The notes below the pieces were generated by a model that saw nothing but the letters and a program-made list of their open reading frames with translations, was not told the DNA's origin and made no database searches. A program made the translations under genes and the position numbers. 64,000 bases of DNA from Clostridiales bacterium (GTDB lineage: Bacteria > Bacillota > Clostridia > Oscillospirales > QAMX01): the NCBI GenBank assembly GCA_016303065.1, contig JAEDMJ010000003.1, positions 9,552-73,551 of the forward strand, written 5' to 3'. Position 1 is the stretch's first letter. Every line of letters starts with the position of its first letter. Of this stretch, positions 3,044 through 23,497 are shown piece by piece.

Positions 3044-3178
3044 TTTATGATGACCCCTTTTGATAAGTTTCGTAAACAGCGCGCAAATCTGCCCGCATAC
3101 CTTGGGATATTATATCACAGTTTTGGCGGTTTTACAAGCCCCCGCAGCGTTCCGACAGCGCCCGCATCAGGCGTTTTT

Positions 3179-7172: not shown

Positions 7173-7177
7173 GAAAC

Positions 7178-7924: not shown

Positions 7925-7957
7925 TATCGCCCGTTTTTCCCCCGAAAAAAGTTCAGA

Positions 7958-8004
7958 AACCCGCCGCAGCAGGATTTTTTTGCTCTCTGCGGCGGGTTTT
8001 ATTT
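7958..8004 (+). terminator. Rho-independent terminator
   Basis: aaacccgccgcag ... ctgcggcgggttt stem followed by tatttg. Confidence 0.55.
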
Positions 8005-8091
8005 GTTCCCCTGCCCCGCCGAAAACCCTGTTGAAATATAAAAATTTTTTTGCTATAATAATTTCAAACATATGAAAGGAAATTCACAGCC

Positions 8092-10095
8092 ATGTCAAAA
8101 TACTTTGTCGGCGTTTCATACTATCCCGAATGGTGGCCCGAGGAGGAATGGGAAACCGATTTTTCAAAAATGGAGGAAATCGGCATAAACGCCGTCCGCA
8201 TGGGCGAGTTTGCCTGGAGCTGGTACGAGCCGCGGGAGGGCGAATTCAATTTTGAGCCCATGCGCCGCGCCGTTGACGCCGCAGCCCGGCACGGCATCTC
8301 CGTCATCATGGCAACCACCTCCGCAGTCTGCCCTCCGTGGCTGTATAAAAAGCACCCCGAGGTCAAGGGCGGAAACATCTACGGAAAGTACACTTTCGGC
8401 GGGCGCAAGGGAAACTGCCTTTCTTCCGACATTCTGCGGGAGTATGTCCTCCGCGTGACCGAGGAACAGGCGCGCGCGCTCGGCGGCCACCCCAACATAG
8501 TCGGATGGCAGCTTGACAACGAGCCCGGTTTTCCCTTTGCCGAATACGACGAGCTCTGCGAAAAGAAATTCCGCGTCTGGCTCCGCGAAAGATACGGCAC
8601 CATCGAAAACCTCAACCGCGAATGGTTCAACATGGTCTGGTCAAACTGGTACAACGACTTTGACGAGATATCTTTCCCCACCAACTCCGCCGAGGGCGCC
8701 TGGACTCCCGGGCTTTTCCTCGCCACCCGCCGGTTCTTCTCCGACAATTTCAACTCCATCTTAAACATGGAAGCAGACATTCTGCGCAAATATATCTCCA
8801 AAGACGTCTTCCTTTACACCAACTGGCCCGGGGCCAACTGGTCGGTGAGCTGTTTTGACGGCGAAAAATATCTCGACTACGCCGGATGGGACAACTACGT
8901 TCCGCTTCCCGTCGGCGAAGATTACCGAATCCAGCTCCGCAGCGCCATGGAACACGACTTTGACCGGCGGCTTTCCCACGGAAAGCACCGCTTCCTCGTC
9001 GCGGAACAGACCTGCTTCCCCCACGCAAACGCGCTTCCCGAGTCCCTTGCCGCTCAAACCTGGCTTGACGTTTCCCAGGGCGCCTTCGGCACCGTATTTT
9101 TCGAGTGGCGCTCTCCCCTCGGAAGCATCGAACAAAACTATTCGAGCATGCTGGCAGGCGACCTCTCCTACTGCGAGGGCGCTCCCGCCGTCAAGCGCTT
9201 CGCCGAAGAGATCAAGCACATCTGGCCCCTTATCGACGGCGCGGAGACAAAAAGCGACATTGCCACGCTTTACTCCTACGAGTCAAGCTGGTCCACCCCC
9301 GGCTGGGTCGTGGACGGCCCCTATGACCAGGACTTTTTCAATATCCACGGCGCATTCAGAAACGCCCTCCGGCGTGACCTGGATGTTGTCGGCATCCAGG
9401 ACGACCTCTCTCCCTATAAGATGATATCTGCGCCGGGACTTCGCATCAGCACCCCCGAAAACGCGGAAAAACTCATTGACTACGTCCGCCGCGGCGGAAT
9501 TCTGATTCTGAACCGCGACTGCGGAATGTACGACGAAGACAACCGCCTTTACACGCTCTGCCCTCCCGGACTTTTCAGAGAGATGTGCGGCGTATCCGTG
9601 ATTTCGAGCATCTCCGCCGCCTCGATGGCAAAACAGCAGCCCGATGATTTCGTCGGCGTTGAGTTCCCCGACGGAAGCCGGTTTGCCGCCTGGAAGGACC
9701 TCTCCAAACTCCGCATTGAAGCTCCCGACGTCGAGGTTCTTGCCACGTTCACCTGCGGAAAGCTTCGCGGACTTCCCGCAATCACGATCCGTCCCTACGG
9801 CGACGGCCACATTGTCTATCTTGCCGCAGACTGCAACGATTACCGCTATTACGAAGCGCTTGCACACAGCCTCAACTCCCGCTTCGGGTTCAAGCCCTAT
9901 TTCGAAGCAGAGGACGGAATCCTGGCTTCCCGCCGCATAAAGGACGGAAAAGAGATTTTCTTCGCGGTAAACATGACGGAATCCGCAAAAAAGATCGTCA
10001 TCCCCCAAGGCATGGTCAACTGCCTCACCGGAGAAGCGCTCGGAACGGAATGCACCGTTCCCTTCTTTGACGCGCTGGTGTTCACAAAGAAGTAA
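8092..10095 (+). CDS. GH42 beta-galactosidase
   Basis: The N-terminus YFVGVSYYPEWWPEEEWETDFSKMEEIGINAVRMGEFAWSWYEPREGEFNF is the classic GH42 opening. Length is 667 aa. Confidence 0.85.
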   Translation: MSKYFVGVSYYPEWWPEEEWETDFSKMEEIGINAVRMGEFAWSWYEPREGEFNFEPMRRAVDAAARHGISVIMATTSAVCPPWLYKKHPEVKGGNIYGKYTFGGRKGNCLSSDILREYVLRVTEEQARALGGHPNIVGWQLDNEPGFPFAEYDELCEKKFRVWLRERYGTIENLNREWFNMVWSNWYNDFDEISFPTNSAEGAWTPGLFLATRRFFSDNFNSILNMEADILRKYISKDVFLYTNWPGANWSVSCFDGEKYLDYAGWDNYVPLPVGEDYRIQLRSAMEHDFDRRLSHGKHRFLVAEQTCFPHANALPESLAAQTWLDVSQGAFGTVFFEWRSPLGSIEQNYSSMLAGDLSYCEGAPAVKRFAEEIKHIWPLIDGAETKSDIATLYSYESSWSTPGWVVDGPYDQDFFNIHGAFRNALRRDLDVVGIQDDLSPYKMISAPGLRISTPENAEKLIDYVRRGGILILNRDCGMYDEDNRLYTLCPPGLFREMCGVSVISSISAASMAKQQPDDFVGVEFPDGSRFAAWKDLSKLRIEAPDVEVLATFTCGKLRGLPAITIRPYGDGHIVYLAADCNDYRYYEALAHSLNSRFGFKPYFEAEDGILASRRIKDGKEIFFAVNMTESAKKIVIPQGMVNCLTGEALGTECTVPFFDALVFTKK

Positions 10096-10118
10096 ACCCG
10101 CCGTATACCACAAAAACC

Positions 10119-10160
10119 AAATCCCGCCCTTTTTAAGAAAAAAGGGCGGGATTTTCTTTA
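10119..10160. terminator. Bidirectional terminator between convergent genes
   Basis: aaatcccgcccttttt / aaaaagggcgggattt stem with A/T runs on both sides. It lies between the GH42 gene (+) and cinA (-). Confidence 0.6.
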
Positions 10161-10217
10161 TGACACGGAGTTCTGTTTTCCCGGAATTTCCTTTCCGGAC
10201 GGGAAACGCGGAATTTT

Positions 10218-11462
10218 TCAGATTTTTGCCACAGCGTCCAGCACGGCTTTGAGCGCGGTGTTCGCGGCAATGCCGCGGATGTCCGCCCTTTCTCTGCTGC
10301 GGCCGCCAAGACGAAGCTCCCTGACCTCCGTCTTTCCGCCGCAGCACAGCCCGAGGTACACCAGTCCCACCGGTTTTTCGGCCGTGCCGCCTCCGGGACC
10401 GGCAATGCCGGTGAGGCTGACGCCGATATCCGCGCCGGTAAGCAGGCAGACTCCCCTGGCCATCTCCTCCGCAGTCTCCGGACTGACGGCGCCGAACGAG
10501 GCAAGCGTTTCGGCTTTTACTCCCAGAACGCGCTCCTTAACGGAGTTTGCGTAAGTCACCGCTCCACCGAGGAAAACGGCAGAGCTTCCCGAAACGTCGG
10601 TTATTCTCTTTGAAACAAGCCCTCCGGTGCAGGATTCCGCCGCAGCAAGCGTGAGACGCTTATCGTACAAAGCCGCAACAACCGCATGCTCCAGACTGTC
10701 GACGTTAACGCCGTATACGACGTCTCCCAAAGCCTTCCGGATGTCTGCCACAACGGGCGCAGTGAGCGCTTTCGCTTCTTCTTCCGTTTTTGCTCTGGCG
10801 GTGACGCGAAGCTCGACCTCTCCGAGCTTGCAGTAGGGCGCAACGGTGGGATTAACCGCATTTTCCATCATGGGGCGGAGCAGCGCTTCAACGGCCGACT
10901 CGCCCATGCCGCAAATCCGAACGGAGTCGGAATAAATGACCCCGTCGGCCATGGCGGCAAGGTACGGCACAAGGCGGTGATCCGTCATCGGCCGGCACTC
11001 CCGCGGCGGACCGGGCAGCATTGCGACAATGCATCCCCCCGCGTCAAAGGCGCAGCCCGGGGCGGTTCCCCAGTCGTTTTCAAAAACGGTGCAGTCCCGG
11101 GGAAGATAGGCCTGTTTTATGTTGTTTTCCGTCATGGGTCTGTCCCGTTCGGCAAAAAAAGCTTTGATTCTGTCAAGGCTCGCCTCGTGAAGCACAAGCT
11201 CCCTGTCAAAAACACGGCAGATGATCTCTTTTGTAAGATCGTCGTATGTCGGCCCGAGCCCCCCCGTCGTTATAACGAGGTCCGAACGCTTTCCCGCCTC
11301 CCGAAGCACCTGCTCAAGCCTTGCCGGATTGTCTCCGACAACGGTGTGATAAAAGACATTTATACCCAAATTTGCAAGTTTTTGGGAAATATATTGGCCG
11401 TCTGTGTTGGAAATCTCTCCCAAAAGCAATTCTGTTCCGACGGCGACAAGCTCTGCGTTCAA
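10218..11462 (-). CDS. cinA: Competence/damage-inducible protein CinA (MoCF-binding domain + PncC nicotinamide-nucleotide amidase domain)
   Basis: NAELVAVGTELLLGEISNTDGQ N-terminus and C-terminal PncC-like ..AAESCTGGL.. motif. TTG start at 11462 with GGAAGG 8 nt upstream. Confidence 0.85.
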   Translation of the reverse strand: MNAELVAVGTELLLGEISNTDGQYISQKLANLGINVFYHTVVGDNPARLEQVLREAGKRSDLVITTGGLGPTYDDLTKEIICRVFDRELVLHEASLDRIKAFFAERDRPMTENNIKQAYLPRDCTVFENDWGTAPGCAFDAGGCIVAMLPGPPRECRPMTDHRLVPYLAAMADGVIYSDSVRICGMGESAVEALLRPMMENAVNPTVAPYCKLGEVELRVTARAKTEEEAKALTAPVVADIRKALGDVVYGVNVDSLEHAVVAALYDKRLTLAAAESCTGGLVSKRITDVSGSSAVFLGGAVTYANSVKERVLGVKAETLASFGAVSPETAEEMARGVCLLTGADIGVSLTGIAGPGGGTAEKPVGLVYLGLCCGGKTEVRELRLGGRSRERADIRGIAANTALKAVLDAVAKI

Positions 11463-11480
11463 GATATTACCTTCCTCTCC

Positions 11481-12683
11481 TTAGTCGGCGCGGTTCCCGC
11501 CGCCGACGACAATGCGCTCCGCCGCTTCGATGGCCGCATCCAGAAGAGGTTCAAAGTCGAGCTTGGCTTCCTCGGCCTCAAGCCGCTCGAGCCGGGGCTT
11601 GGTGTTGGGATGCTTCGGCGTGAAAACGGTACAGCAGTCCTCAAAGGGGCGGGTCGATATCTCAAAAGTGTCCGTCGCGCGTGCAATCTGTATTATCTCT
11701 TCCTTGTCCATGCCTATAAGCGGCCGGAAAAGCAGCCTGTCGCACACGGCAGATGTGACGGCCAGGGATTTCATCGTCTGGCTGGCGACCTGTCCCAGGC
11801 TTTCGCCTGTTATAATGCACTCACAGCCCTCTCTGGCGGCAATTTTGCAGGATATTCTCATCATCATGCGCCGCAGGAGCAGTGTGAACAGGTCTTCCTG
11901 ACAGGCGTCCCGAAGCGCTTCCATGACAGGCGCGGCGTTGACCACAAAAAGCTGGATCCGGCCGCATCGGGCGCTCATCGCATCGGCAAGGTCCAGAACT
12001 TTCTGACGGGCGCGTTCGGAGGTGTACGGCGGGCTTTCAAAGTGAACCGCAGTCAGCCTCACCCCGCGCTTTGCAAGCATATGACCCGCAACCGGGCTGT
12101 CGATGCCGCCGGAGAGCATGAGAAGACCCTTTCCCCCGGTGCCGACCGGCATTCCTCCCGCTCCGGCAAGACGTCCGGCGTGGATATAGGCCGCATGGTC
12201 GCGGATCTCGACATAGACCGTCATGTCCGGCTTTTCCAGGTCCACGCGAAGGTGGGGGAAAGCGTCCAGAAGAACTCCCCCCGCCTCTCCGGCGATCTCC
12301 GGGGAAGTGAAGGGGAATTTCTTGTCCGAACGCCGGACAAGAACCTTGAAAGTCTCCGCGCCCAAAAGCGCATCTTTGCAGTACCCCGGAAGAAGCTTCA
12401 GTATGGTCGCCATGTCCTTTTCGCACTCTGCCGCGCGGCACACGACCACAACGCCGTACACAAGGCACATTGCCTCCGCCGCCTCGCCGATTCTCTCCTC
12501 CGCCTGTGCATCCGTCGGGCGGATATAAACGGTCGACTGCATGATGCTGACGTGAAAACTGCCTATTCTGGAAAGGCGGTATCGCACGTTCGTAAGGAGC
12601 TGCTGTTCAAAGCTGGAGCGGTTCAGCCCTTTAAGGACGATCTCGCCCAATTTCAAAAGTATAATCTCTTTATATTCCATCAT
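11481..12683 (-). CDS. thiI: tRNA 4-thiouridine(8) synthase ThiI
   Basis: THUMP-type N-terminus (ILLKLGEIVLKGLNR) and PP-loop LLMLSGGIDSPVA. Length is 400 aa. Confidence 0.9.
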   Translation of the reverse strand: MMEYKEIILLKLGEIVLKGLNRSSFEQQLLTNVRYRLSRIGSFHVSIMQSTVYIRPTDAQAEERIGEAAEAMCLVYGVVVVCRAAECEKDMATILKLLPGYCKDALLGAETFKVLVRRSDKKFPFTSPEIAGEAGGVLLDAFPHLRVDLEKPDMTVYVEIRDHAAYIHAGRLAGAGGMPVGTGGKGLLMLSGGIDSPVAGHMLAKRGVRLTAVHFESPPYTSERARQKVLDLADAMSARCGRIQLFVVNAAPVMEALRDACQEDLFTLLLRRMMMRISCKIAAREGCECIITGESLGQVASQTMKSLAVTSAVCDRLLFRPLIGMDKEEIIQIARATDTFEISTRPFEDCCTVFTPKHPNTKPRLERLEAEEAKLDFEPLLDAAIEAAERIVVGGGNRAD

Positions 12684-12689
12684 TTTTTC

Positions 12690-13799
12690 TTATGCGTGGG
12701 CAAGTTCACCCGCCGCGCGTTCCAGCGCCGACGCAAGCCTCACGGCGTCCTCCTCTGTGTTGTATGCCGAAAAACTTATGCGAAGCGCTCCGTCAAGCGT
12801 CTTCGCTTCAAGTTCAAGCGCCTTGAGCACATGGCTCGGCTTTCCCCGTCCGCAGGCGGAGCCGGACGAAACGTATATCTGTTCCGCAGAAAGCCTGTGG
12901 AGCAGAGTCTCCGAACGGAAGCCCGGAAGGCTCACCATGCATACGCCCGTATCTCCTCTTGATATCACTTTCAGGCCGTCTATGCGCTCCAGAAGAGAAA
13001 GAGCGTACTCCTTGAGCTTCACGGCTCTGCCGCTTTTGTCCCGGGCCGCGACCGCCGCGCCGAAAGCCGCGATCAGCGGCACCGGCTCCGTTCCGGGAGC
13101 AAGGCCCTTTTCCTGCCCTCCGCCGAAGGTTATCGGCGAAAGCTTCACGCCCTTCCGGACCCAAAGCGCCCCCACGCCCTTCGGCGCATGGACCTTGTGC
13201 CCGCTGACAGCCACAAGGTCCGCTCCGAGAGTTTTGACCGAAAACGGAATTTTGCAGAACGCCTGCACTGCGTCGGTGTGCAAAAGCGCACGGCTCTTTC
13301 TTCTTTTCAGTTCTCCTGCGATCTCCGCAACAGGCTGAACCGTTCCGAGCTCGTTGTTTGCAAGCATCACCGAAACAAGCACGGTGTCGCTGCGCACGGC
13401 GGAAAGGACGTCTTCCGCGCGCACTCTTCCGTCCGGTCCCGGAGCGACACGGGTCACCTCAAAGCCCTCTTTTTCCAGCGCGGCAGCCGCGTTCAAAACG
13501 GCGTCGTGCTCGATCCGGGTTGTGACAATGTGCTTTCCGATGCGGCAGTTTCTCCTTGCGCCGCCGAGAACGGCCAGATTGTCGCTGAAAGTGCCTCCGG
13601 GAGTGAACACCAGCTCGTCGGGAGCTCCGCCCAAAACCGAGGCAAGAGTTTTTCTGGCTTCATCCACCGTCCGCTCCGCAGCAAAGCCCGCAGAGTGCAG
13701 CGAGGACGGATTTCCGAAAGTCTCCTCTGCCGCACGTTCAAAAGCTTCCAGCGCCGCGGAACACACCTGCGTCGTCGCCGCGTTGTCAAGATATGTCAT
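12690..13799 (-). CDS. Cysteine desulfurase (NifS/NifZ type, class V aminotransferase)
   Basis: MTYLDNAATTQV start, SGHKVHAPKGVGAL PLP-lysine region, and SSGSAC active-site Cys loop. The ATG at 13799 overlaps the upstream stop (ATGA). The ORF-track start at 13946 is an upstream extension. Confidence 0.85.
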   Translation of the reverse strand: MTYLDNAATTQVCSAALEAFERAAEETFGNPSSLHSAGFAAERTVDEARKTLASVLGGAPDELVFTPGGTFSDNLAVLGGARRNCRIGKHIVTTRIEHDAVLNAAAALEKEGFEVTRVAPGPDGRVRAEDVLSAVRSDTVLVSVMLANNELGTVQPVAEIAGELKRRKSRALLHTDAVQAFCKIPFSVKTLGADLVAVSGHKVHAPKGVGALWVRKGVKLSPITFGGGQEKGLAPGTEPVPLIAAFGAAVAARDKSGRAVKLKEYALSLLERIDGLKVISRGDTGVCMVSLPGFRSETLLHRLSAEQIYVSSGSACGRGKPSHVLKALELEAKTLDGALRISFSAYNTEEDAVRLASALERAAGELAHA

Positions 13800-14707
13800 G
13801 GAAGCTTGTGTCCCGCCGCGGAATAGAGCCCGTACCAGTCGGCGCGGCTCATTCTGTAATCGGAGGCGGCACAGATGTCTTTGATGTGCGAAACCGACGT
13901 TGTTCCCGAAATTGCCTGTATGTTGGCCGGATGGCGCAGAATCCACGCGAAAGCCAGCGCCGCGGGGGTAAAGCCCGTTTCCGCGGACAGGCGGTCAAGC
14001 ACGGCGTTCAGCTCGGGAAATTTCTCATTTCCCAGGAAACAGCCTTCAAAGAACCCGTACTGCAGCGGGCTCCACGCCTGAACCGTGACCTTGTTGAGCC
14101 GGCAGTAGTCGAGAACGCCTCCGTCGCGTCCACAGGCCTGCGGCAGCGTCGTGTTGACATATATCCCCTGGTCCACCATCCCCGCATTCACAACGCTAAA
14201 CTGCATCTGGTTCGCAACGATGTGATCCGAGAGAGAGCGGTTCAAAAGCTCCATCTGACCGGCCGTGTGGTTGCTGACTCCGAAACGGCGCACAAGCCCG
14301 CGGCTTCGGAGCTCTTCAAAGACTTCCGCAACTTCTTCCGGCTCGCCCAGAGCGTCGTTTCTGTGCAGAAGAAGCACGTCGATATAGTCAAGGCCGAGCC
14401 TCTTCAGGCTTGCCTCGACGGCAGACCTGAGGTATTCCGCCGAAAAATCGTACATTCCGCGGCGAATCCCGGCTTTTGTCTGTATCTTCACGGATTCGCG
14501 CACACCCAGCTCCCGCACGGCGCGTCCCAAAAGCTCCTCGCTCTTTCCGCCGCCGTAAATGTCCGCGGTGTCAAAAAAATCTATTCCGTTCTCTATTGCC
14601 GCGGACACAAGCGCGGTGACGTCGCGCTGTTCCATTCCGCCCACGCGCCAAAGTCCCAAAGCGACCGCGGACGCCTCAAAGGCTCCGCCAATGCTTATTC
14701 TCTTCAT
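13796..14707 (-). CDS. Aldo/keto reductase
   Basis: GIDFFDTADIYGGGKSEELLG and LDYIDVLLLHR motifs. Length is 303 aa. Confidence 0.85.
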   Translation of the reverse strand: MKRISIGGAFEASAVALGLWRVGGMEQRDVTALVSAAIENGIDFFDTADIYGGGKSEELLGRAVRELGVRESVKIQTKAGIRRGMYDFSAEYLRSAVEASLKRLGLDYIDVLLLHRNDALGEPEEVAEVFEELRSRGLVRRFGVSNHTAGQMELLNRSLSDHIVANQMQFSVVNAGMVDQGIYVNTTLPQACGRDGGVLDYCRLNKVTVQAWSPLQYGFFEGCFLGNEKFPELNAVLDRLSAETGFTPAALAFAWILRHPANIQAISGTTSVSHIKDICAASDYRMSRADWYGLYSAAGHKLP

Positions 14708-15321: not shown

Positions 15322-16617
15322 TCAAACTCTGATCTTTATGCCGTAAGCGCAGCGGCAGGGCAGCTCGTCGGGGTCGATCGGCGGGAAAGAAACGCGGATC
15401 TTTCCGTCTTCGTTTTCCACGGTGAGCTTCGCTCCGGGAAGTCCAAGCATGGACGCTTCCGCATTTTCGGAGTAGGGAATATCCAGAGTGACGGGTTTGA
15501 ACGGCGAACGCAGAAGCCAGGCATAAACCGCATCGCCCTTTTTGGTATAGCGCACGTCGCCGGAGGCTCCCGGAAGATATTTTCGGCTTCCGTAGATGCC
15601 CTCTCCGTTGACGTCAAGCCACCGGCCGATCTGAAGGAGCCTCTCCTGCATGATAACGGGGATGCGTCCGTCAGGCGTCGGGCCGACGTTCAAAAGCAGA
15701 TTGCTCCCCTTGCCCACAAGGTCAACAAACATATGTATGAGCGCCTTCTCGGTAAGATAGTGCTCGGGTCTTTCAAATTTGTTCCAGCCAAACGAGGCTC
15801 CGATTCCCCGGCACTCTTCGGAAACCCTGTCGAGCTCCGCCGCAGTGCGTCCCGCTTCGATCAGTCCGTATTCCGTGGTGAAGTTCCCGCCGAGACGGCC
15901 GCGGGTCTCTTTTCCCCAGCGGTCGTTGGGAACGATGAAATCCCTGACCGAACTCTCGTTGTAGAGCCACTGTAGAAACTCGGTGGAATGCCAGACGGAG
16001 CTCTCGTGGTCCCATTCCCCGTCGGTGAACAGCGTGGCGGGCTCATACTTTGTGACGATCTCCTTGAGCATCGGTATAAGGTGCTCAAGGGCGTAGCGCT
16101 CCGGATTTTCAAGGTAGAGCGGATGGAACCACTCGTAAACCGAATGGTAAACGCCGAAGCGCACATCCGTCCTGTCGCACGCCGCTTTAAGCTCGGCGCA
16201 GAAATCCCTGTGCGGGCCCACGTCCCAGCTGTTCCAGTTCCATGCGTAATCCGTTTTGTAAAGACAGAACCCGTCGTGGTGCTTGCTGACAAGGTTCATA
16301 TACTTCGCACCGGACTTCCGGAAAAGCCCGACCCACTCGTCCGCGTCAAAGTTCTCGGCGGTAAATCCGGAAACGAAGTCCTCGTATCTGAAATTCTCGC
16401 CGTAGCGCTTTTTGTGGTAGTCAACGTACATTTTCTGGCGCTCGCTGGGATTTTCCAGTCTCAGCGGCCATCCGTACCACTCTGCGTAATCCCCGAAAGG
16501 GGCATACGCCGGAACGGAATAGAGGCCCCAATGTATGAAGATCCCGAATTTGGCGTCTTCAAACCAGGCCGGCACCCGGCGGGAATTCAGCGACTCCCAG
16601 TTGTTTTCATATTTCAT
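15322..16617 (-). CDS. GH29 alpha-L-fucosidase
   Basis: WFEDAKFGIFIHWGLYSVPAY.. and ..KHHDGFCLY.. GH29 motifs. The ATG at 16617 has AGGAGGA 5 nt upstream. The ORF-track ATG at 16665 has no RBS. Confidence 0.85.
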   Translation of the reverse strand: MKYENNWESLNSRRVPAWFEDAKFGIFIHWGLYSVPAYAPFGDYAEWYGWPLRLENPSERQKMYVDYHKKRYGENFRYEDFVSGFTAENFDADEWVGLFRKSGAKYMNLVSKHHDGFCLYKTDYAWNWNSWDVGPHRDFCAELKAACDRTDVRFGVYHSVYEWFHPLYLENPERYALEHLIPMLKEIVTKYEPATLFTDGEWDHESSVWHSTEFLQWLYNESSVRDFIVPNDRWGKETRGRLGGNFTTEYGLIEAGRTAAELDRVSEECRGIGASFGWNKFERPEHYLTEKALIHMFVDLVGKGSNLLLNVGPTPDGRIPVIMQERLLQIGRWLDVNGEGIYGSRKYLPGASGDVRYTKKGDAVYAWLLRSPFKPVTLDIPYSENAEASMLGLPGAKLTVENEDGKIRVSFPPIDPDELPCRCAYGIKIRV

Positions 16618-16667
16618 AGTATCCTCCTGATATAACTTATCCTTATACTTATACGAAAGCTCCATCG

Positions 16668-17339
16668 TCAGACGCGCAGCTCGCCGGAATGGGTCATAAG
16701 CGTCACGCCGGTGACTCCGGGTATCGCCGCAACGGCTCTCACAAGCCCGAATTCATCCTTCACTCTGAGCTCCACGATCATTTCCACCCGTTCGGGAGTT
16801 ACCGACCTTGAACGCACCCGCGCCCCCTTGGCATACCGCTTCAGAACCGGAACCATCGCGGAATTGATCTCCTGATTCTCCGCGGAAACGATCAGAAGCA
16901 TCGGCGCGGCCAAAACCGGCACAAAATCCAGAAGAAGTATCCCCGCCGTCAGCAAAAGGGCCATGAACAGCGCGATGTGATAAAGCCCCGTTCCGCAGAC
17001 AATGCCCGAAGCAAACGACCAGAAGAGAAAGAGCATATCCGTCGGGCTCTTCACTGCGTTTCTGAAGCGGATTATCGACAGCGCGCCGACCATTCCCAGC
17101 GAAATTATGAGGCTCGACTGCATTGCAAGGATCACGCCGCAAGTCACAACGGCCATAAGCGCACAGCTTTTGTTGAATTCCGGTGAATACGATCCGCTTC
17201 TGCGGCATACTATCCTGTATACCGCATATATGTAGAGCGAAGAAGCAACCGAAGCAAGCAGGCTCGCAATAATGCGCGCCGTTCCCACGTCAGCCGTGGA
17301 AAGCCCGTCGCGGAAGGATGCGATTATCTGGTCAAACAT
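16668..17339 (-). CDS. DUF4956 family multi-pass membrane protein
   Basis: Several hydrophobic helices and the ..LSIIRFRNAVKSPTDMLFLFWSFASGIVCGTG.. core typical of DUF4956. The ATG has a GGGGGA RBS and overlaps the VTC gene end by 16 nt. Confidence 0.7.
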   Translation of the reverse strand: MFDQIIASFRDGLSTADVGTARIIASLLASVASSLYIYAVYRIVCRRSGSYSPEFNKSCALMAVVTCGVILAMQSSLIISLGMVGALSIIRFRNAVKSPTDMLFLFWSFASGIVCGTGLYHIALFMALLLTAGILLLDFVPVLAAPMLLIVSAENQEINSAMVPVLKRYAKGARVRSRSVTPERVEMIVELRVKDEFGLVRAVAAIPGVTGVTLMTHSGELRV

Positions 17340-18043
17340 ATTTTTTCCCCCTGTTCGGATTCAAAAAAAGGACTGAGACGGCTCATACGGTACTTTGAAA
17401 AAGCCGTTCGCCGCAGGTTTGCCGGTATCACCGCGTTTGATATCCACGCCGGCAGAAGAGCCGTATATTTCACTTCCAGCAGCCCCGTTCCCACGGGAAA
17501 CACCGGGACGGCATTTTTCAGAGAAACGTCAAAAAACTGTTCCGCGCCGCGCAGAGTCCGAAGCGACCGGTCAAGCGTAATCCGCACATGTCCCGGTTCT
17601 CCGGTGTACGCCTCGCGGGTGTACTCGCAAAGAGCCGCGGGCCGAAACCCCTCCGCCCGGCACAAAAAAGCAAGCTCCCTGACCGCCGGCGGATAATCCC
17701 TGTTTCCCGGCTCCGCCCGGCAGGATATGAGCGCGTCGGCAGTCTCCCGCGAAACCGGCACGGATGTCTTTTCCGAAGTATCTCCCCGGCGGAACTTCAC
17801 TTCAAGCCGGAGAAAGTCCGGATTCCCGTCGTAAAGCCGAAGACGGTATTTTTTCCGGAAATCCGTGCCGTCCTCGTTCTGTTCAAGGCACTTGTCATCC
17901 GCACTGTCAAAGTAGAGGCTTCTCACCGCATATCTTCCGTTTTGTCCGTGGACGTCCCGGCGCAAAAGCCCGCCCGCTCCGGCAGAGACGATCCTCAGTT
18001 CGCCCTCGGAGCATATGTATTTTTCTTCAAAACGAATCGCCAT
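17324..18043 (-). CDS. VTC-domain protein (polyphosphate-polymerase-like triphosphate tunnel fold)
   Basis: N-terminal MAIRFEEKY (RxExKY beta-1 signature), SLYFDS.., FRKKYRLRLY, LRLEVKFRRG, LLEVKY strand pattern. No TM segments. A 2-nt gap separates it from the cotH stop. Confidence 0.75.
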   Translation of the reverse strand: MAIRFEEKYICSEGELRIVSAGAGGLLRRDVHGQNGRYAVRSLYFDSADDKCLEQNEDGTDFRKKYRLRLYDGNPDFLRLEVKFRRGDTSEKTSVPVSRETADALISCRAEPGNRDYPPAVRELAFLCRAEGFRPAALCEYTREAYTGEPGHVRITLDRSLRTLRGAEQFFDVSLKNAVPVFPVGTGLLEVKYTALLPAWISNAVIPANLRRTAFSKYRMSRLSPFFESEQGEKICLTR

Positions 18044-18045
18044 AA

Positions 18046-19569
18046 TCAGTCTGCCGAAAACTCCGAATCCATGTATTCAAGCCTTGCTTCGATATACCGG
18101 CAAAGCTCGTCCATTCCCGCTCCGTAATCGCTTTCCGGCCAGCGCGCCCTGTCCCGCTCCGCCGCGCCGGAACGGACAAGTTCCGATCTCAGCGCCTGCG
18201 CCGCGCCGCAGATTTTTTCCGCGTCCAGAATTTTTTCAAGCTCCAGATATCTTCTGCAAAGCTGCTCTTCCGCTTTTTCCGGAAAAACCGACGCGTATGC
18301 CTCAAAAACCGGACAGGCGGTCGGCAGTGCGGCGCTTTCCCCGGAGTACACGGTATTGTTGCAGAACTTGAGTTCCGAAAAGCCGCACCCGAAGCTGAAC
18401 TTGAAATCCGTCGGGATAACCGTGTAAGAAAGCTCTCCGTAATTGTCGTGAGCGGTAAGATAAAAACTCTGAAATCCGTACCGGGCAGACGACACAAGCG
18501 ACGTAAAAATATAGTAGTCGCAGATGTTCGACGGCCGCTGGACCCGGGGCAGAGCTTCCGTTCCCGTTCCGCCAAACACCATTCCCGTCCAGAGCGCGCA
18601 GCTGTCCCAGAGCCCGGATTCAAAAAACGCGTGGGTAGAACGCAGCTCAACGTCCCGGCAGAAAAAGCTTTCGGTCAGCAGAAAATCTTCGGCTTCCGGA
18701 ACGTCCGGCCCGTCAAAGAGGTACACCGTGTCGTCGGCGTCCCCTCCGGAAAGCTTCGCATCCACTCTCTGTGCCAGAAGGTAAAGCCCGGCATAGTTTC
18801 CGTCGATGAAAACCTCCACATATTCCGCGTTCGCTCCGCTCTCGAGAGCGTACGGGTTTGTCGCCGCGATCCCGTTCCAGAGGTCCATCGCAAGTTTTTC
18901 GCGCACCTTGGTTCTGTCGCCGTACATCGGCATCAGTATCCAGTCGTCGTCGGCACGCATTCCGAGAAGCTGCGCCCGGTAATAAGCGCCGTTCTCATCA
19001 AAAAGTGTCAGCTTCCAGGAGCTTTTGGGCCAGAGCTCCGATTCGTACCCCCGGACATGGAATTCACAGGCGGAAACAACCGTCCGCGCACCCTTTTCTC
19101 CGCTTCCGTCGGGACAGAAAAGCCGCATTTCACCCGAGCTTTCGAGGCAAAGCGCCGGAAGCCCCGTGAACATCACGTTCACAGCGTCCGTAACCGTTCC
19201 GTCCGACACGCACAGCCTGAACACATGGCAGTATTCCAGGGCGCTGGGCCGGTATTCAAAAAACTCGTCGGGAACAAAAGACAGTTCATACCCCTCCGCA
19301 GTCGAAAGAGCACCGCTCCATCCCGCCCGATCGAGTGTCTGAGGGATGTAATAGGTGTCGGTATAACTGTCGTACGGGGCGGCGGCGCCGTTTAAGAGAA
19401 GCGAAAAAGCAAGCTCCCCTTCGGCGTTCCCATCCGCATCATCCCGTATCTCAACTCCGAGAACGCTGTTTTTTTCAAGCCGGATCAAAGAGGCCCCGAC
19501 AAGCCCCACTGCCGCAAGCAAAACCGCAAGAGCGGCGGCAAAGAGCAGTTTTTCGCGTTTTGACCTCAT
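18046..19569 (-). CDS. CotH kinase-fold family protein with N-terminal signal-anchor
   Basis: MRSKREKLLFAAALAVLLAAVGLVGA hydrophobic N-terminus. CotH-like core (..GDRTKVREKLAMDLWN.., ..VEVFIDGNYAGLYLL.., ..IPTDFKFSFG..). ATGA overlap with nif3. Confidence 0.7.
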   Translation of the reverse strand: MRSKREKLLFAAALAVLLAAVGLVGASLIRLEKNSVLGVEIRDDADGNAEGELAFSLLLNGAAAPYDSYTDTYYIPQTLDRAGWSGALSTAEGYELSFVPDEFFEYRPSALEYCHVFRLCVSDGTVTDAVNVMFTGLPALCLESSGEMRLFCPDGSGEKGARTVVSACEFHVRGYESELWPKSSWKLTLFDENGAYYRAQLLGMRADDDWILMPMYGDRTKVREKLAMDLWNGIAATNPYALESGANAEYVEVFIDGNYAGLYLLAQRVDAKLSGGDADDTVYLFDGPDVPEAEDFLLTESFFCRDVELRSTHAFFESGLWDSCALWTGMVFGGTGTEALPRVQRPSNICDYYIFTSLVSSARYGFQSFYLTAHDNYGELSYTVIPTDFKFSFGCGFSELKFCNNTVYSGESAALPTACPVFEAYASVFPEKAEEQLCRRYLELEKILDAEKICGAAQALRSELVRSGAAERDRARWPESDYGAGMDELCRYIEARLEYMDSEFSAD

Positions 19570-20339
19570 TTTTCTCCTATGTACTTAAAAAACGGACGGC
19601 AGGATTGGGCAATTTCAAACCGGCAGTCCCTAAACCGTTCCGAAAGCCGCTCTTTCACAACGGGAAGGACAAGTCGCTCCGTCTCGTAATGGCCGGCGTC
19701 GATAAGGGTAAAGCCCGCCCGGAACGCGTCGACCGCCTGGGAATACTTTATATCCCCCGTAATCAGCGCGTCCGCTCCGGCCGCCATGGCCGCCTCCACG
19801 AACGATGCGCCGCCTCCGCAGCAGACCGCGGCGGTCCCGACGGCTCTTCCCCCGTCGATAAGCCGCACAAAGGGCAGCCCGGCCGCAGTTCTGACTCTCC
19901 CGGCCAGGGCCGCGGGAGCGGATATCTCCTCAGGACAGGCGCAAAGAGCGCAGCAGCCGTCCGTGTCCGGCACAACTCCGACCTTTTTCAGTCCGATGGC
20001 ACGAATAAACGTGTCGTTGACCCCTCCCGGCGCGGCGTCAAGGTTCGTATGGCACGCGATCACGGCGACGCCCCGCTTTGCGGCCTGCCAGGGAAGGGCG
20101 TCCGAAGTGAAGCTTTTCACAGCGCGGAAAATCAGCGGATGATGAGTCAGAACGGCTCCTGCCCCCGCTTCCGCGGCTTCATCCAGTATCTCCTCCGTGA
20201 GATCCAGCGCAAGCATCACCTTTTTCGTCTCTGCCTCCGGGTCTCCGACGAGAAGCCCGCAGTTGTCAAACTCCTTTGCGCTTGAGAAAGGCGCCCAACT
20301 GTCGAGATATTCCAAAAGCTCAGATATTTTCAAACTCAT
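19566..20339 (-). CDS. Nif3-like dinuclear metal center protein (GTP cyclohydrolase 1 type 2 homolog)
   Basis: LLEYLDSWAPFSSAKEFDNCGLLVGD.. and ..VLTHHPLIF.., ..ACHTNLD.., ..IDAGHYETE motifs. Confidence 0.85.
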   Translation of the reverse strand: MSLKISELLEYLDSWAPFSSAKEFDNCGLLVGDPEAETKKVMLALDLTEEILDEAAEAGAGAVLTHHPLIFRAVKSFTSDALPWQAAKRGVAVIACHTNLDAAPGGVNDTFIRAIGLKKVGVVPDTDGCCALCACPEEISAPAALAGRVRTAAGLPFVRLIDGGRAVGTAAVCCGGGASFVEAAMAAGADALITGDIKYSQAVDAFRAGFTLIDAGHYETERLVLPVVKERLSERFRDCRFEIAQSCRPFFKYIGEK

Positions 20340-21626
20340 TCACCTCTGTTCTTCGGGAATATATTCAAAAAAATCATACATATCGTACCAGCTTCCGGTG
20401 TAAACCCCGTCCGGAAATTTCAAGCCGTCCAGAATCCGGGTGCATCCGGAGGTGTTGGCCGCCGCGGTATAGACCGACGCAACGACCGCAGTATATGTCC
20501 CCACGGCGTTTCCGTCCGCATCTGTTTCGGCAAGAAGCCTTTCGCCCCAGCCGACAAAAAACAGCGCCGAATCGTTTGCGGAAAAAAGCGGCGCGGCGTA
20601 TTCCGTTCCGGCGCTGCTCTCCACAACGCAGATGGTGTTGTCATTGGCGTAAACATAGACGCCCCTGTCTCCGGCTCCGTTTCCCGCCGCGGTATATGCG
20701 ACAACGCTTCCGTCGGAGGAAACGGCCGTCCCGCTGACTCCGGAAAATCCCGACGGGATGTACGAGAATCTGAGCTTTGTCAGATCCACGACGCATATCG
20801 TCTCGAGCTCATCCTCCTCGTATCTGTAAGTCAGAAAAGCGGCGTGCGAGCCGTCCGAAGAGACGGAATAGTCGCTTTCGGCTTTATATGCCACATTTTT
20901 CCCGCCGAGGAGGGACGAAGCCCCCTCGATCACGGGAAGACTGAAAAGCTGGGGTCTTTTCTCTCCCGCAGCTCCGCAGGCAAGCAGAAGAGCCCCGCCG
21001 TCCGAAGACCAGCACAGCGGCTCCACAAGCCAGTCGCTTCTTCCGCATATGCTCTCCGAAGAAAATTTTTCCGGCTCCGGAAGCCCCCTGTTTTTGACAT
21101 AGAGCCCTTCCGGCCGGTCTACGCCCACATCCACATAGCGCACTCCGGCGGCAAGTCTTACCTTGTCCGGAGAAATAAGCGCCGAGTCCACAAAACAGCC
21201 GTCCGCCGCCGTAAAAAGCGTTTCAGTCACGCCGGTTTCCGGGTCGTAGGCGCGGACGCCGCCGGAATACGAGCACGAGATCATCCTTCCGGACGAAAAA
21301 CACACAAACTTCGCATCCGGAGACGCCAGCGCGGCCGTTCCCCCGGACACGGGGACGACGAAGATGTCGCTGCTCCTGTTGAAATATACGTATTTCCCGT
21401 CGGGAGATATCTTCGGCGAAAAGATATGCTCTCCCGCGGCGATCAGCGCGCTCTCTTTGCTCTCCATATAATACATATACAGCCCGTCTTCTCCCACATA
21501 GGCCAGCATATCCTCCGGAGAGTCCCCGGAGCGCTCAAAAAAGCACCCGGAAAGCAGCGCCGAAACGCACAGCGCAGCGCATATTGCAAACAGGTATTTT
21601 CTTATTCCAAGGTTCTTCACTCCCAA
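20340..21626 (-). CDS. Lipoprotein with PD40/TolB-like beta-propeller repeats
   Basis: Signal peptide with lipobox LLSGC. Recurrent SPDG/SSDG blade motifs (ISPDGKYVYF, LISPDKVRLA, WSSDGGALLL, VSSDGSHAAF, VSSDGSVVAY). TTG start with GGAGG 7 nt upstream, inside the end of the preceding gene. Confidence 0.55.
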   Translation of the reverse strand: MGVKNLGIRKYLFAICAALCVSALLSGCFFERSGDSPEDMLAYVGEDGLYMYYMESKESALIAAGEHIFSPKISPDGKYVYFNRSSDIFVVPVSGGTAALASPDAKFVCFSSGRMISCSYSGGVRAYDPETGVTETLFTAADGCFVDSALISPDKVRLAAGVRYVDVGVDRPEGLYVKNRGLPEPEKFSSESICGRSDWLVEPLCWSSDGGALLLACGAAGEKRPQLFSLPVIEGASSLLGGKNVAYKAESDYSVSSDGSHAAFLTYRYEEDELETICVVDLTKLRFSYIPSGFSGVSGTAVSSDGSVVAYTAAGNGAGDRGVYVYANDNTICVVESSAGTEYAAPLFSANDSALFFVGWGERLLAETDADGNAVGTYTAVVASVYTAAANTSGCTRILDGLKFPDGVYTGSWYDMYDFFEYIPEEQR

Positions 21627-23377
21627 ATGAACGCCTCCAGGGTCTGCGGTTCAAGCGGCACGCGGAACACGGTCTCAGTCATGTCCTCACTCAGCTCCGG
21701 GGTTTCCTCTGCCGCGGCACCGGCGTTACGGCCGCGGACAACGGTATAGGGGGCATGGACCGCGCCGGTGACAAGGCTTCTGAGCTTTTCCGGGGTTCCC
21801 TTAACGTGAATGAGCGCCGCAGAGCCGTGTTCAAGGAAGGATTTCACCGCAAAGGTGTTGTTGTCCTTCGGGAAAACTGCAATACGGTTCTGGCCTTCAA
21901 TCCAGACGGGCATATTCCTCGAAAGATATTTGCGGACGTATCCCATGACGGGAGCCGGAATATCGTACCAGTCAGACATGCTGTCCGGCACGTTCAGTAT
22001 CCAGAGCTTTCCCTTTCCGTACCAGCTTCTGGAAAGCAGTATATTGGGCGAACAGTCATTGGTCTGAACCGCAAAGAACTCGTTTTCGTTGGTCATCCAT
22101 TCAATGACCGGAAGGGAAATGTCGTGGCTGGCGCGGTAATAGGCGCAGTCCGTTCCCCAGCCCGAGTCAAACCCGCCGAATTCGTTCCCGCTCTGTCTGG
22201 CGGAGGTGACGCGCATGGCGGTGAACTCCGCCGCTCCGGCGTCCTGAAGCCTTTCAAGGCAGCCCGAGGTCATGACCACGTGTCCGCCCTTCAAAAGGTG
22301 GTCTCCGATTTTTCTTATGATGTCCGGGTCGCAGGCCGAAGCCGCCGTCAGCATCACAAGGCAGGGCTGCGAGGGAAACTCGACGGTGGGGTCCGCCGGA
22401 ACGCCGCACATACCGAGGAAGTCGTAAACATGGTCCTCCCCCCTGGAATGATACGGCAAATAGACCGGAATGCCGACGGGCTTTCCGAGCTTTCCGAGGA
22501 AGCGGTCGGTTCTGTCGCAGAAATAGCCCAGCACCGGAGTGTACATCGTGTCGTAGTTAAGCTCCCAGCAGAAAAGCGTCATCTCTTCCGGAGAAGCCAT
22601 AAGAGTGAGCTCGGCCTGCTCGCTGAAAACATTCATGTCGTTTCCGCACTGGATGGAATCGAACCAGCCCCCCCGGTTGTTGTGGGGCGGAAGGCTCTGG
22701 AGATAGCGTATCAGCGAATAGGAGGTGTAGCGCGGATTGCGGAACAGCGAATAGCGCGTGTGGCGCGTCTCGGTTCCCGAATAGATATTGTCGAACATGG
22801 CCGGCTGGGTCTCCGTGTTATAGCCCAGAACCTGGAAGCTTTCGTGCCATGTGGGATACTTCAAAGTTATCTTCACACTGGGGTTCACGGCCTTCGCCGG
22901 GGCGACGATACAGTCCCGGCAGAAATCCGTCATAAGCGAAAGGCGGAACTCCTGCCAGGTGCGGTCTCCCTTTGCCTTCCGGCATCGCTCACAGGTGCAG
23001 TCCGTGGAGAGGGAGTCGTCGATCATGATCTCGTCGAAATACTGAGCCATCGAAGCGATGTATTCCGAAAAAAGCTTTCTGACGTCCGGGTTTGTAAAAC
23101 ACAGCATCCTCGCCGAACAGTCGAAATGAGGGGAATACGACGGCATGATGGCCGTTGCGGTGCGCACGCCGCGGGACTCGAAAAACTCCTTTGCCTTCAA
23201 AAGCCGGTCAAGTGGCGCCGCTTCCCCGCGGAAGCATTCAAGGTACACTTTTTCAAACCTGGTATATTTTGAATAATAGGCAAACTGCGCCTCGGGGTCT
23301 CCGTTATCTCCGAACATTTTGTTAACACAGCCAACTGTCATGAAGACGGAAAAACAAAAGTTATCATAACCCTTCAT
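21617..23377 (-). CDS. Hypothetical cytoplasmic Cys-rich protein (586 aa), family not recognised
   Basis: Long ORF with GC3-rich codon usage. ATG at 23377 with GGGAGAG 8 nt upstream. Contains a ..IMIDDSLSTDCTCERCRKAKG.. cluster. No signal peptide. Confidence 0.6.
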   Translation of the reverse strand: MKGYDNFCFSVFMTVGCVNKMFGDNGDPEAQFAYYSKYTRFEKVYLECFRGEAAPLDRLLKAKEFFESRGVRTATAIMPSYSPHFDCSARMLCFTNPDVRKLFSEYIASMAQYFDEIMIDDSLSTDCTCERCRKAKGDRTWQEFRLSLMTDFCRDCIVAPAKAVNPSVKITLKYPTWHESFQVLGYNTETQPAMFDNIYSGTETRHTRYSLFRNPRYTSYSLIRYLQSLPPHNNRGGWFDSIQCGNDMNVFSEQAELTLMASPEEMTLFCWELNYDTMYTPVLGYFCDRTDRFLGKLGKPVGIPVYLPYHSRGEDHVYDFLGMCGVPADPTVEFPSQPCLVMLTAASACDPDIIRKIGDHLLKGGHVVMTSGCLERLQDAGAAEFTAMRVTSARQSGNEFGGFDSGWGTDCAYYRASHDISLPVIEWMTNENEFFAVQTNDCSPNILLSRSWYGKGKLWILNVPDSMSDWYDIPAPVMGYVRKYLSRNMPVWIEGQNRIAVFPKDNNTFAVKSFLEHGSAALIHVKGTPEKLRSLVTGAVHAPYTVVRGRNAGAAAEETPELSEDMTETVFRVPLEPQTLEAFIWE

Positions 23378-23497
23378 AACCAAAACTCTCCCTTACAAGC
23401 TGTTGTCATTCAAATCCTTTACGTCTGATTTTAGCACAGCGAGCCCCTGCTGTCAAGGAATATGTTGTATTCTTCGGGCTTCACTCACAAATTGGAC

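Follow-up and report, generated by a model that had tools for sequence, protein, structure and literature searches.

A stretch of 64,000 nucleotides (nt) from a Clostridiales bacterium (contig JAEDMJ010000003.1; the whole stretch is called the window here) carries on its minus strand three consecutive genes, for a CotH-like protein, a VTC-domain protein and a DUF4956 membrane protein. We observed that this trio recurs as a unit in at least three phyla, and that its VTC protein is predicted to have the fold and the tunnel residues of yeast Vtc4. We propose that the trio is an envelope-directed polyphosphate module whose polymer would be made at the membrane and used on the cell surface. The proposal is tentative, a possibility that stops a little short of probable. 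The genes, identified from the list of open reading frames (ORFs) and Pfam, and the overlap of the last two, read from the sequence, are as follows.

18046 to 19569, minus strand: cotH-like gene, 507 amino acids (aa)
17324 to 18043, minus strand: VTC-domain gene, 239 aa
16668 to 17339, minus strand: DUF4956 gene, 223 aa
17324 to 17339, minus strand: 16-nt overlap of the VTC 3' end and the DUF4956 5' end

An earlier note on this DNA, drawn from the letters alone, had described the three genes and their junctions, and that description was accurate. The cotH TGA is followed after 2 nt by the VTC ATG, and the overlap of VTC with DUF4956 suggests translational coupling; a G-rich ribosome-binding site lies 5' of the DUF4956 ATG. 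The three family assignments made in the same note also held when checked with hidden Markov models (HMMs), PF08757, PF09359 and PF16316 all being matched.

Recurrence of the trio across genomes

Is the trio a unit, or merely three neighbours in one genome? We drew a genome set of 120 listed loci from species-representative genomes, using a DNA pattern that encodes two VTC motifs in degenerate form. Only VTC genes containing RSLYFD...K[YF]R[ILMV]R can be picked up in this way, and the listed loci are a lower bound, so the taxonomic picture is incomplete. Genes at these loci were called with iterated home-made HMMs in blocks of 8 kb. An independent second set consisted of 80 marine metagenome loci, obtained from relatives of a gammaproteobacterial VTC. 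A locus was counted as observable for DUF4956 if VTC had 750 nt or more of sequence on each side.

VTC was found at all 120 genome loci listed and DUF4956 at 107; each of the 13 exceptions ends at the edge of its stored block. DUF4956 flanked VTC in 83 of 83 observable genome loci and in 43 of 43 observable marine loci (126/126 pooled); the two genes usually overlap or abut, and the median gap between their ORF segments is 4 nt in the genome loci. CotH was present within the same 8-kb block in 81 of the 120 genome loci. The 39 loci without it comprise 33 that are cut at 1.8 kb or less on at least one side and 6 with room on both sides, so that CotH was found in 81 of 87 observable genome loci. 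It was also found in all 40 marine loci in which the sequence upstream of VTC spans 3 kb or more, which brings the pooled count to 121/127. The home-made CotH model is valid, because every linked CotH ORF sampled (66/66) matched Pfam CotH. The adjacency first noted in the window thus extends across genomes. Two gene orders dominate: VTC-DUF4956-CotH (34 loci) and CotH-VTC-DUF4956, the order of the window (31 loci).

Carriers of the trio include Lachnospiraceae, Oscillospiraceae, Collinsella, Paenibacillus, Erysipelotrichaceae, Abiotrophia, Trichococcus and C. difficile; species named among the sampled loci include C. difficile, Abiotrophia defectiva, several Paenibacillus species and C. neonatale. 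Further loci of the genome set come from metagenome-assembled genomes (MAGs) of Treponema, Gammaproteobacteria and Bathyarchaeota. The flanking genes vary by lineage, and the trio stays intact in two gene orders and at least three phyla. A relative whose VTC is 50% identical to that of the window (L121) has the whole housekeeping block in common with it. In a Lachnospiraceae-type locus (L122) the trio lies amid purine genes, and in a very abundant version from gut Clostridia (L205-L208) it lies in a GT2/GtrA/Bac_transf/LytR-CpsA-Psr glycopolymer cluster. GT2/GT4 genes stand near it in the marine loci, and PelG was found in only 7 of the 120 genome loci. We conclude that the arrangement of the three genes exceeds chance by far and that VTC-DUF4956 adjacency is effectively obligate. 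That the trio forms one functional unit is, in our judgement, close to certain.

Individual loci showed further features. In L121, a small DUF559 (endonuclease-like) ORF lies between cotH and VTC (9652-10017), and the rest of the block is syntenic. At L205-L208 (~2000-3355, minus strand, and 6679-12042, plus strand) a gene for a purple-acid-phosphatase-like metallophosphoesterase is divergent from the adjoining cotH; its product might oppose the module as a phosphatase or polyphosphatase. A hybrid histidine kinase with HisKA_7TM, HisKA, HATPase_c and receiver domains, the seven-transmembrane (7TM) part being N-terminal, was encoded within the 8-kb block at 28 of the 120 genome loci (e.g. L056, 3311-5539), and a Cthe_2159 beta-helix carbohydrate-binding protein at 10 of 120. 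On the Bathyarchaeota MAG contig (L003, 2092-4197, minus strand) the VTC and DUF4956 genes are each split into two overlapping ORFs by frameshifts or sequencing errors; LTD (lamin-tail) and Cthe_2159 proteins adjoin them, and the locus has no CotH match. The gammaproteobacterial MAG contig (L005, the same contig as L125) contains a match to Phosphate-selective porin O/P (6128-7288, minus strand; E=6e-11), whose gene sits between two cotH genes, just upstream of a cotH(+beta-helix)-VTC-DUF4956 array. A tblastn search of plasmids gave only four Gram-positive matches. We considered P0057 (379 aa, annotated as VTC + DUF4956) as a natural fusion and rejected it: its VTC part is without the C-terminal portion, including the Ser-Lys motif, its DUF4956 part is without the first helix, and the protein looks like a deletion variant or an assembly chimera.

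The three proteins

The 239-aa protein is the VTC domain alone. It matched PF09359 at E=5.4e-30 (105.1 bits; cut-off 23) over profile positions 2-231 of 235. It had been described as soluble, and the hydropathy scan indeed found it without any hydrophobic segment; a hydrophobic N-terminal segment occurs in only 2 of 120 VTC ORFs. Single-sequence PDB searches with this protein gave no match, and a profile was needed: the profile of its homologues matched the yeast Vtc4 catalytic domain (3g3q) at E=2.9e-16.

An alignment of 22 homologues revealed an extensive set of invariant residues: R4, E6, K8, K65, R67, R69, Y71, E81 and K83 in the first part of the protein, and K92, Y141, R143, R154, D158, E190, K192, S216 and K217 beyond. 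The opening MAIRFEEKY, with the RxExK signature singled out in the earlier note, is thus fixed at its three key positions. Two of the conserved motifs lie at

18020 to 18034, minus strand: VTC beta-1 motif R4-x-E6-x-K8, invariant in the 22 homologues, pairing with yeast Vtc4 R-Q-T-T-K
17393 to 17398, minus strand: VTC Ser216-Lys217, invariant, pairing with the yeast Vtc4 F-S-K-F motif

In the profile alignment, R67-L-R69 pairs with R-L-R of Vtc4, E190-V-K192 with E-V-K, and S216-K217 with S-K; invariant K8, R67, R69, K83, R143, R154, E190, K192, S216 and K217 all align with yeast Vtc4 tunnel residues. Six of the yeast positions are, in our numbering, K200, R264, R266, E426, S457 and K458. Their counterparts K8, R67, R69, E190, S216 and K217 are all kept, so that residues aligned with the catalytic ones of the tunnel are in place. 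A yeast complex with a Vtc4 R264A/R266A/E426N mutant has been described (PMC9911596), and Lys458 is the catalytic residue of Vtc4p (PMC4641920).

Structure prediction pointed the same way. The AlphaFold2 (AF2) model of the VTC protein had a predicted local distance difference test score (pLDDT) of 90.7 and a predicted TM score (pTM) of 0.86. When it was searched with Foldseek, ranks 1-13 were all Vtc4, Vtc2 or Vtc3 tunnel domains (TM 0.69-0.74). The best match was Vtc4 3g3r (E=6e-14, TM 0.69-0.73). Escherichia coli ygiF came next with 7e-8, then CYTH proteins with E values between roughly 1e-7 and 1e-6; the E value for Vtc4 is about a million-fold better than for the other tunnel enzymes. The alignment and the model both indicate that the protein is, by fold, a soluble triphosphate-tunnel enzyme of Vtc4 type. 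We think it rather likely that VTC makes polyphosphate.

The family is large. A profile of the bacterial homologues matched 16,555 clusters at 50% identity with E<=1e-3 and 10,218 with E<=1e-10; these counts take in eukaryotic VTC proteins, and the 150 best matches are mostly of bacterial size. Many of the top homologues (400-620 aa; e.g. P0264, P0269, P0273 and P0299) have N-terminal extensions of 190-400 aa rich in K, R, P and Q, which have a disordered look, are of low complexity, match no Pfam family and are fused to a complete VTC domain. From their composition they could be a built-in polyanion-binding tail. We ruled out that these long proteins are DUF4956-VTC fusions, their N-terminal parts being basic and of low complexity with no Pfam match.

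The DUF4956 protein matched PF16316 at E=9.5e-11 (42.1 bits; cut-off 30.6), as did all 34 of its aligned homologues. Against MgtC (PF02308) it scored 23.1 bits (E=1e-4), under the cut-off of 31.4; 22 of the 34 homologues matched MgtC at E<0.01, the best at E=1.1e-5, and NCBIfam gave a weak MgtC/SapB match over the full length. These scores point to a remote relative of MgtC, not a member of that family. Apart from DUF4956, MgtC and a few sporadic matches, Pfam scans of the protein and its homologues found no other recurrent membrane family. A word-indexed search returned 1,654 homologues, at 45-51% identity for most of the 120 listed, and by sequence DUF4956 is the most conserved member of the trio. 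Its two predicted domains are

16926 to 17288, minus strand: DUF4956 membrane domain, residues 18-138, five predicted helices (AF2)
16692 to 16901, minus strand: DUF4956 C-terminal ACT-like domain, beta-alpha-beta-beta-alpha-beta, residues 147-216 (AF2 secondary structure)

The hydropathy scan found several hydrophobic segments, and the AF2 model (pLDDT 79.5) has a short amphipathic helix followed by membrane helices at 18-48, 53-72, 77-95, 99-117 and 120-138, in keeping with the multi-pass protein proposed earlier. By the positive-inside rule, the N-terminus would be outside and the ACT-like domain inside. Foldseek matched the C-terminal domain to NikR, to the ACT domains of PGDH and RelA and to the C-domain of Mycobacterium tuberculosis MgtC (2lqj), at E values of about 2e-3 to 6e-3 (6.3e-3 for 2lqj). 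In the homologue alignment R42, R91, R93, K97, D101 and a SLGMVGALS motif are invariant, and with this topology the five charged residues lie at the predicted cytoplasmic face, R42, R91, R93 and K97 at helix ends. Translocation through the yeast channel requires basic residues of the channel helices (PMC9911596). The basic residues of DUF4956 recall those of yeast, a likeness that is no proof, and a DUF4956 pore would be an analogy and not a finding. We consider it probable that DUF4956 binds VTC; it may also be a conduit, although here we lean slightly toward doubt.

An NCBI entry from a Clostridiales MAG, named 'CotH kinase family protein', has exactly the sequence of the window CotH (100% identity). 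In the window protein a signal anchor comes first, then an N-terminal stretch of some 140 aa, then the CotH kinase fold. Three of its features concern location and catalysis:

19474 to 19557, minus strand: CotH residues 5-32, the sole hydrophobic segment, after MRSKREK (hydropathy scan and sequence)
18466 to 18483, minus strand: CotH catalytic-loop equivalent with Arg363 and Ser368 (alignment; codons checked)
18406 to 18408, minus strand: CotH Asp388, equivalent of the metal-binding Asp, B. subtilis D251 (alignment)

The single-sequence match to PF08757 (E=8.8e-22, 78.5 bits; cut-off 23.8) covers only residues 171-273, the first third of the Pfam model, and a single-sequence PDB search gave no match; again a profile was needed. 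A profile of 24 linked CotHs matched Bacillus cereus CotH (5jd9) at E=9.7e-39. Because this match spans chain residues 30-355, the whole kinase-like fold is present. Residues 5-32 are probably a signal peptide or a type II anchor, which accords with the outward-facing position suggested before, and of the 66 linked CotH ORFs with a complete N-terminus, 60 have a hydrophobic segment there. Around half of those sampled also carry CHB_HEX_C, Fn3_assoc, beta-helix or LTD domains. Such domains are typical of surface or carbohydrate-binding proteins.

Catalytic positions were read from a MAFFT L-INS-i alignment of 82 sequences, including B. cereus CotH, and two other alignments agree with it. The column of the catalytic Asp (Bacillus subtilis D228) has D in 70/82 sequences and R in 7/82, the latter in the clade of the window only, where the window has Arg363. 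In the column of the catalytic-loop Asn, N is found in 72/82 and S in 10/82, the window having Ser368. The second Asp column (B. subtilis D251) is D in 82/82, the window residue being Asp388, and this Asp is invariant in two further alignments; by analogy with protein kinases it would bind metal. The D228Q and D251A variants of B. subtilis CotH are catalytically inactive (PMC7821199). From the D228Q precedent, canonical activity of the window CotH is therefore predicted to be lost. CotHs of the window clade are 58-62% identical to that of the window, the corresponding VTCs 50-53%, and Arg363 and Ser368 are conserved across the clade. This degree of identity, together with the two conserved residues, indicates that the CotH of this clade is not decaying, and we regard it as a conserved, non-canonical form. 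Hence the extracytoplasmic kinase-fold protein of the earlier note stands as to fold and location, but the name extracytoplasmic kinase is doubtful for this protein; it appears to hold for most linked CotHs, which look catalytically intact. Because an Arg replaces the catalytic Asp, a polyanion binder or an atypical transferase is more likely here than a standard Ser/Thr kinase.

Proposed mechanism and competing explanations

The analysis shows which families the proteins belong to, how VTC is folded, which residues are conserved, what topology the proteins have and how close to obligate their adjacency is; polymerase activity, docking, export and the use of polyphosphate by CotH are inferred. 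In the mechanism that we propose, a cytoplasmic VTC of Vtc4 type would polymerise polyphosphate from ATP. DUF4956, its obligate membrane partner and probably an oligomer, would dock the tunnel through a ring of the invariant basic residues of its cytoplasmic face and would then hand the growing chain to the outer face or retain it at the membrane. The ACT-like domain might give regulatory input, as SPX does in eukaryotes. Anchored outside, CotH would act on or with the product: it may bind polyphosphate, use it as phosphoryl donor where ATP is absent, or move it onto surface glycopolymers or proteins. Our argument for export is indirect: we make it because the persistent operon partner is extracytoplasmic, because some of the contexts are of surface polysaccharides and because of the analogy with yeast. 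That CotH uses polyphosphate at all seems to us doubtful.

A bolder version would make the trio a third bacterial polyphosphate route, independent of polyphosphate kinase (PPK) and serving the cell exterior, with VTC on an MgtC-like conduit extruding the chain and surface CotH using it. CotH, with polyphosphate as donor in place of the ATP that is lacking outside the cell, or by chain transfer, would then modify glycopolymers and proteins of the cell wall or matrix, and the Arg-for-Asp clade would be a derived form that binds polyphosphate or transfers chains. We consider this version improbable.

Several observations weigh against an envelope-directed module. The membrane domain of DUF4956 had no match among solved structures in Foldseek, and the DUF4956 model as a whole had none at E<=0.001 in a library that includes the VTC complexes found by the VTC model. 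By sequence and model, DUF4956 is not homologous to the three-helix channel of Vtc1 type. The earlier description of the trio as the parts of a VTC-like machine therefore stands for the tunnel enzyme of Vtc4 fold and fails for the membrane partner, which is MgtC-like. The window CotH is without the canonical catalytic Asp and loop Asn, and VTC has an invariant Glu6 where Vtc4 has Thr. The phosphate-selective porin at L005 was considered as support for export in diderms and set aside, being confined to that one locus and absent from the 80 related marine loci. In Streptococcus intermedius, single deletions of the three genes did not abolish Pel production or aggregation and gave no clear phenotype; the authors reasoned that polyphosphate may remain cytoplasmic, other VTC components being absent, and described MgtC as a protein that does not transport Mg2+ and acts on ATP synthase and PhoR (bioRxiv 10.1101/2024.04.20.589940). 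The literature searched contains no measurement of activity for a bacterial VTC-domain protein, and no paper in it ties one mechanistically to CotH.

Perhaps, then, the trio makes polyphosphate in the cytoplasm and exports none? The polymer would serve as a phosphate or energy store or as a stress chaperone, DUF4956 would only tether or regulate the enzyme through its ACT-like domain, and CotH would be co-regulated and not touch the product. The regulatory role of MgtC, the lack of a pore-like structural match for DUF4956 and the argument of the S. intermedius authors (bioRxiv 10.1101/2024.04.20.589940) all speak for this explanation. However, it leaves unexplained the extracytoplasmic CotH that accompanies the pair in 121 of 127 observable loci across phyla, and also the repeated placement amid surface-polysaccharide genes. 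We regard it as unlikely.

The invariant Glu6 raises another alternative, in which VTC is a tunnel hydrolase or some other enzyme that uses triphosphates, for instance a triphosphatase or a short-chain polyphosphatase. Together with the MgtC-like protein it would then serve homeostasis of phosphate or ATP, or signalling. Hydrolytic triphosphate tunnel metalloenzymes (TTMs) are marked by an acidic patch, a second metal site, of which AtTTM3 Glu4 is an example; AtTTM3 has a Vtc4-like tunnel centre yet only hydrolyses (PMC4641920). Glu6 is found at the AtTTM3 Glu4 position, a site where Vtc4 has no such residue, and hydrolysis therefore stays compatible with the sequence. However, Glu6 is the only acidic residue among the mappable positions of the patch: at the other two, R4 and K192, the residue is basic, which is also the case in Vtc4. 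The counterpart of catalytic Lys458 in the alignment is an invariant lysine, and the sequence and structure searches both put Vtc4 far above the hydrolases. We conclude that a hydrolytic role is quite improbable.

Nor do we favour a role in sporulation, in which the trio would phosphorylate spore-coat proteins of a sporulating Clostridiales bacterium. The trio is found in Streptococcus, Collinsella, Bifidobacterium and Abiotrophia, all of them non-sporulating, as well as at a gammaproteobacterial locus and on related marine contigs. Linked CotHs bear signal or anchor segments, no cotB- or cotG-like repeat genes adjoin the trio, and the window CotH is without the catalytic Asp. The S. intermedius preprint also treats streptococci as non-sporulating (bioRxiv 10.1101/2024.04.20.589940). 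The characterisation of CotH as a spore-coat protein kinase (PMC7821199) and the origin of the window in a Clostridiales MAG would fit such a role, which we nevertheless judge very improbable. Accidental or lineage-specific adjacency, for which one might cite the position of the window trio inside a long co-directional array with tightly spaced unrelated genes (NIF3, fucosidase), is already refuted by the recurrence statistics and has a negligible chance of being right, as the neighbours change by lineage while the trio stays constant in two orders and at least three phyla.

We return to the envelope-directed polyphosphate module and to what would follow from it. If bacterial VTC proteins make polyphosphate, they would be an overlooked source of it in gut Clostridia, Collinsella, Paenibacillus, streptococci and marine bacteria. 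The 10,218 clusters stand in contrast to reviews that treat VTC as eukaryotic; one of 2025 gives VTC as the enzyme typical of eukaryotes and PPK as that of prokaryotes (PMC12526157). Wherever both flanks were visible, the same membrane partner adjoined the sampled bacterial VTC genes. PPK-independent extracellular polyphosphate has been reported in B. cereus, by a paper that also says the species has no Vtc4 homologue (PMC13484657); a module of this kind, if real, could account for unexplained extracellular polyphosphate. A link to secreted CotH would further bear on the phosphoryl donor of kinase-fold proteins outside the bacterial cell. Some of the loci are relevant to disease: polyphosphate-polymerase-domain and CotH genes are listed in NELoc-2 of Clostridium perfringens (PMC11677781), and the trio stands beside streptococcal pel operons (bioRxiv 10.1101/768473).

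Surroundings of the window trio and comparison with known systems

The trio of the window lies in a co-directional array, whose other members near it, and the best promoter match, are listed here.

19566 to 20339, minus strand: NIF3/DUF34 gene, upstream neighbour (Pfam, NCBIfam)
15322 to 16665, minus strand: GH29 alpha-L-fucosidase gene, downstream neighbour (Pfam)
20340 to 21626, minus strand: gene for a 428-aa protein, PD40/TolB-like beta-propeller (family search, weak matches)
21617 to 23383, minus strand: 588-aa ORF at the head of the array (ORF list)
23428 to 23456, minus strand: best sigma-70-like promoter match, TTGACA-17-TAAAAT, 11/12 (consensus match only)

The NIF3 gene and the start of cotH share 4 nt (ATGA). 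This gene order recurs in L121 and not in L122 or L205-L208, and NIF3 is probably a lineage-specific syntenic neighbour outside the module. The fucosidase gene begins 2 nt past the DUF4956 stop, and its synteny is confined to the close lineage. The N-terminus of the 428-aa protein resembles a lipoprotein signal (...ALLSGC); an orthologue in L121 has faint Tricorn-like matches, and synteny with NIF3 and cotH is again limited to the close lineage. The 588-aa ORF matched none of the Pfam or NCBIfam families, and an unannotated 356-aa gene takes its place in L121. The sigma-70-like site (23456-23428) is just 5' of this ORF, upstream of the array that bears the trio. A terminator scan found no convincing terminator within the array and none above chance expectation. 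Elsewhere in the window, a 758-aa ORF (10686-12962, plus strand) lies antisense to two genes, one ThiI-like (11481-12683) and one cysteine-desulfurase-like (12690-13946). Open frames of this type are common in GC-rich DNA, and this one is almost certainly spurious.

The combination of the three genes is already in print. One preprint reports cotH, polyphosphate polymerase and DUF4956 as conserved accessory genes that directly adjoin Gram-positive pel operons (bioRxiv 10.1101/768473), and a later one, on S. intermedius, treats the same set (bioRxiv 10.1101/2024.04.20.589940). In the models of the latter, CotH is secreted and has FN3, the polymerase is a tunnel enzyme that resembles Vtc4 and has catalytic residues, and the third protein is MgtC-like, with four helices and an ACT domain; its authors could not find the trio outside pel operons. 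Our finding of PelG at only 7 of 120 genome loci contradicts this last claim. For the window trio, Pel linkage was ruled out by a phmmer scan of all 64 kb, which found no PelG, PelF, PelA-like, GT2 or LCP homologue. Thus the earlier note was right that no biochemical function has been assigned to the trio, none having been found in the literature searched, but the trio is not novel as a combination, and the window holds a stand-alone copy. To the published picture we add that the module is autonomous and mostly not Pel-linked, that VTC and DUF4956 are adjacent as good as obligately, that it reaches marine contigs related to the gammaproteobacterial locus, and that an Arg-for-Asp CotH clade exists, to which the window belongs.

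How does the module compare with systems already characterised? Like the Pel accessory set of S. intermedius (SIR_1594, SIR_1593 and SIR_1592), it consists of the same three contiguous families, and the predicted locations agree too: CotH is secreted, the VTC-like protein is cytoplasmic and the protein with the ACT domain is in the membrane. Unlike that set, the window copy is not contiguous with a pelDEADAFG operon, and its CotH has Arg for the catalytic Asp whereas SIR_1594 is reported with catalytic residues. With the Bacillus CotH spore-coat kinase (5jd9/5jda) the window protein shares the full kinase-like fold and the putative metal-binding Asp; it differs in its signal anchor and extra N-terminal region of about 140 aa, in having Arg for D228 and Ser for the loop Asn, and in a context that is not one of sporulation. 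DUF4956 resembles MgtC/SapB proteins (Salmonella MgtC; M. tuberculosis 2lqj) in the weak but repeated similarity of the membrane domain and in its ACT-like C-terminal domain, yet it is a separate family that scores under the Pfam cut-off and is invariably partnered with a VTC gene.

The hydrolytic TTMs (E. coli ygiF, AtTTM3, CYTH) have in common with bacterial VTC the beta-tunnel fold and a Glu two residues before the beta-1 Lys. In contrast to them, bacterial VTC is basic at the first beta-1 position and after the metal-binding Glu, as Vtc4 is, and invariantly keeps the lysine aligned to the catalytic Lys of the polymerase; structural matches to these enzymes are far weaker than to Vtc4. PPK1 and PPK2 have the same presumed product, polyphosphate from a nucleoside triphosphate. 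To our knowledge, their folds are unrelated to that of VTC and they have no dedicated membrane or extracytoplasmic partner.

The eukaryotic VTC complex (Vtc4/Vtc3/Vtc1; 3g3q, 7ytj, 8i6v) has a tunnel domain of the same Pfam family and fold. Bacterial VTC keeps counterparts of its basic tunnel residues and catalytic Lys, and in both systems the enzyme has a membrane partner with conserved basic residues on the (in DUF4956, predicted) cytoplasmic side. The two differ in construction. The bacterial catalytic domain is split off as a separate soluble polypeptide without SPX and keeps Glu6 in beta-1; its partner, a predicted five-helix MgtC-like protein, is unrelated to the three-helix domain of Vtc1 type and has an ACT-like domain in the place of SPX. 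The bacterial set further adds a surface CotH, extracytoplasmic by prediction, and its target would be the plasma membrane and not the vacuole.

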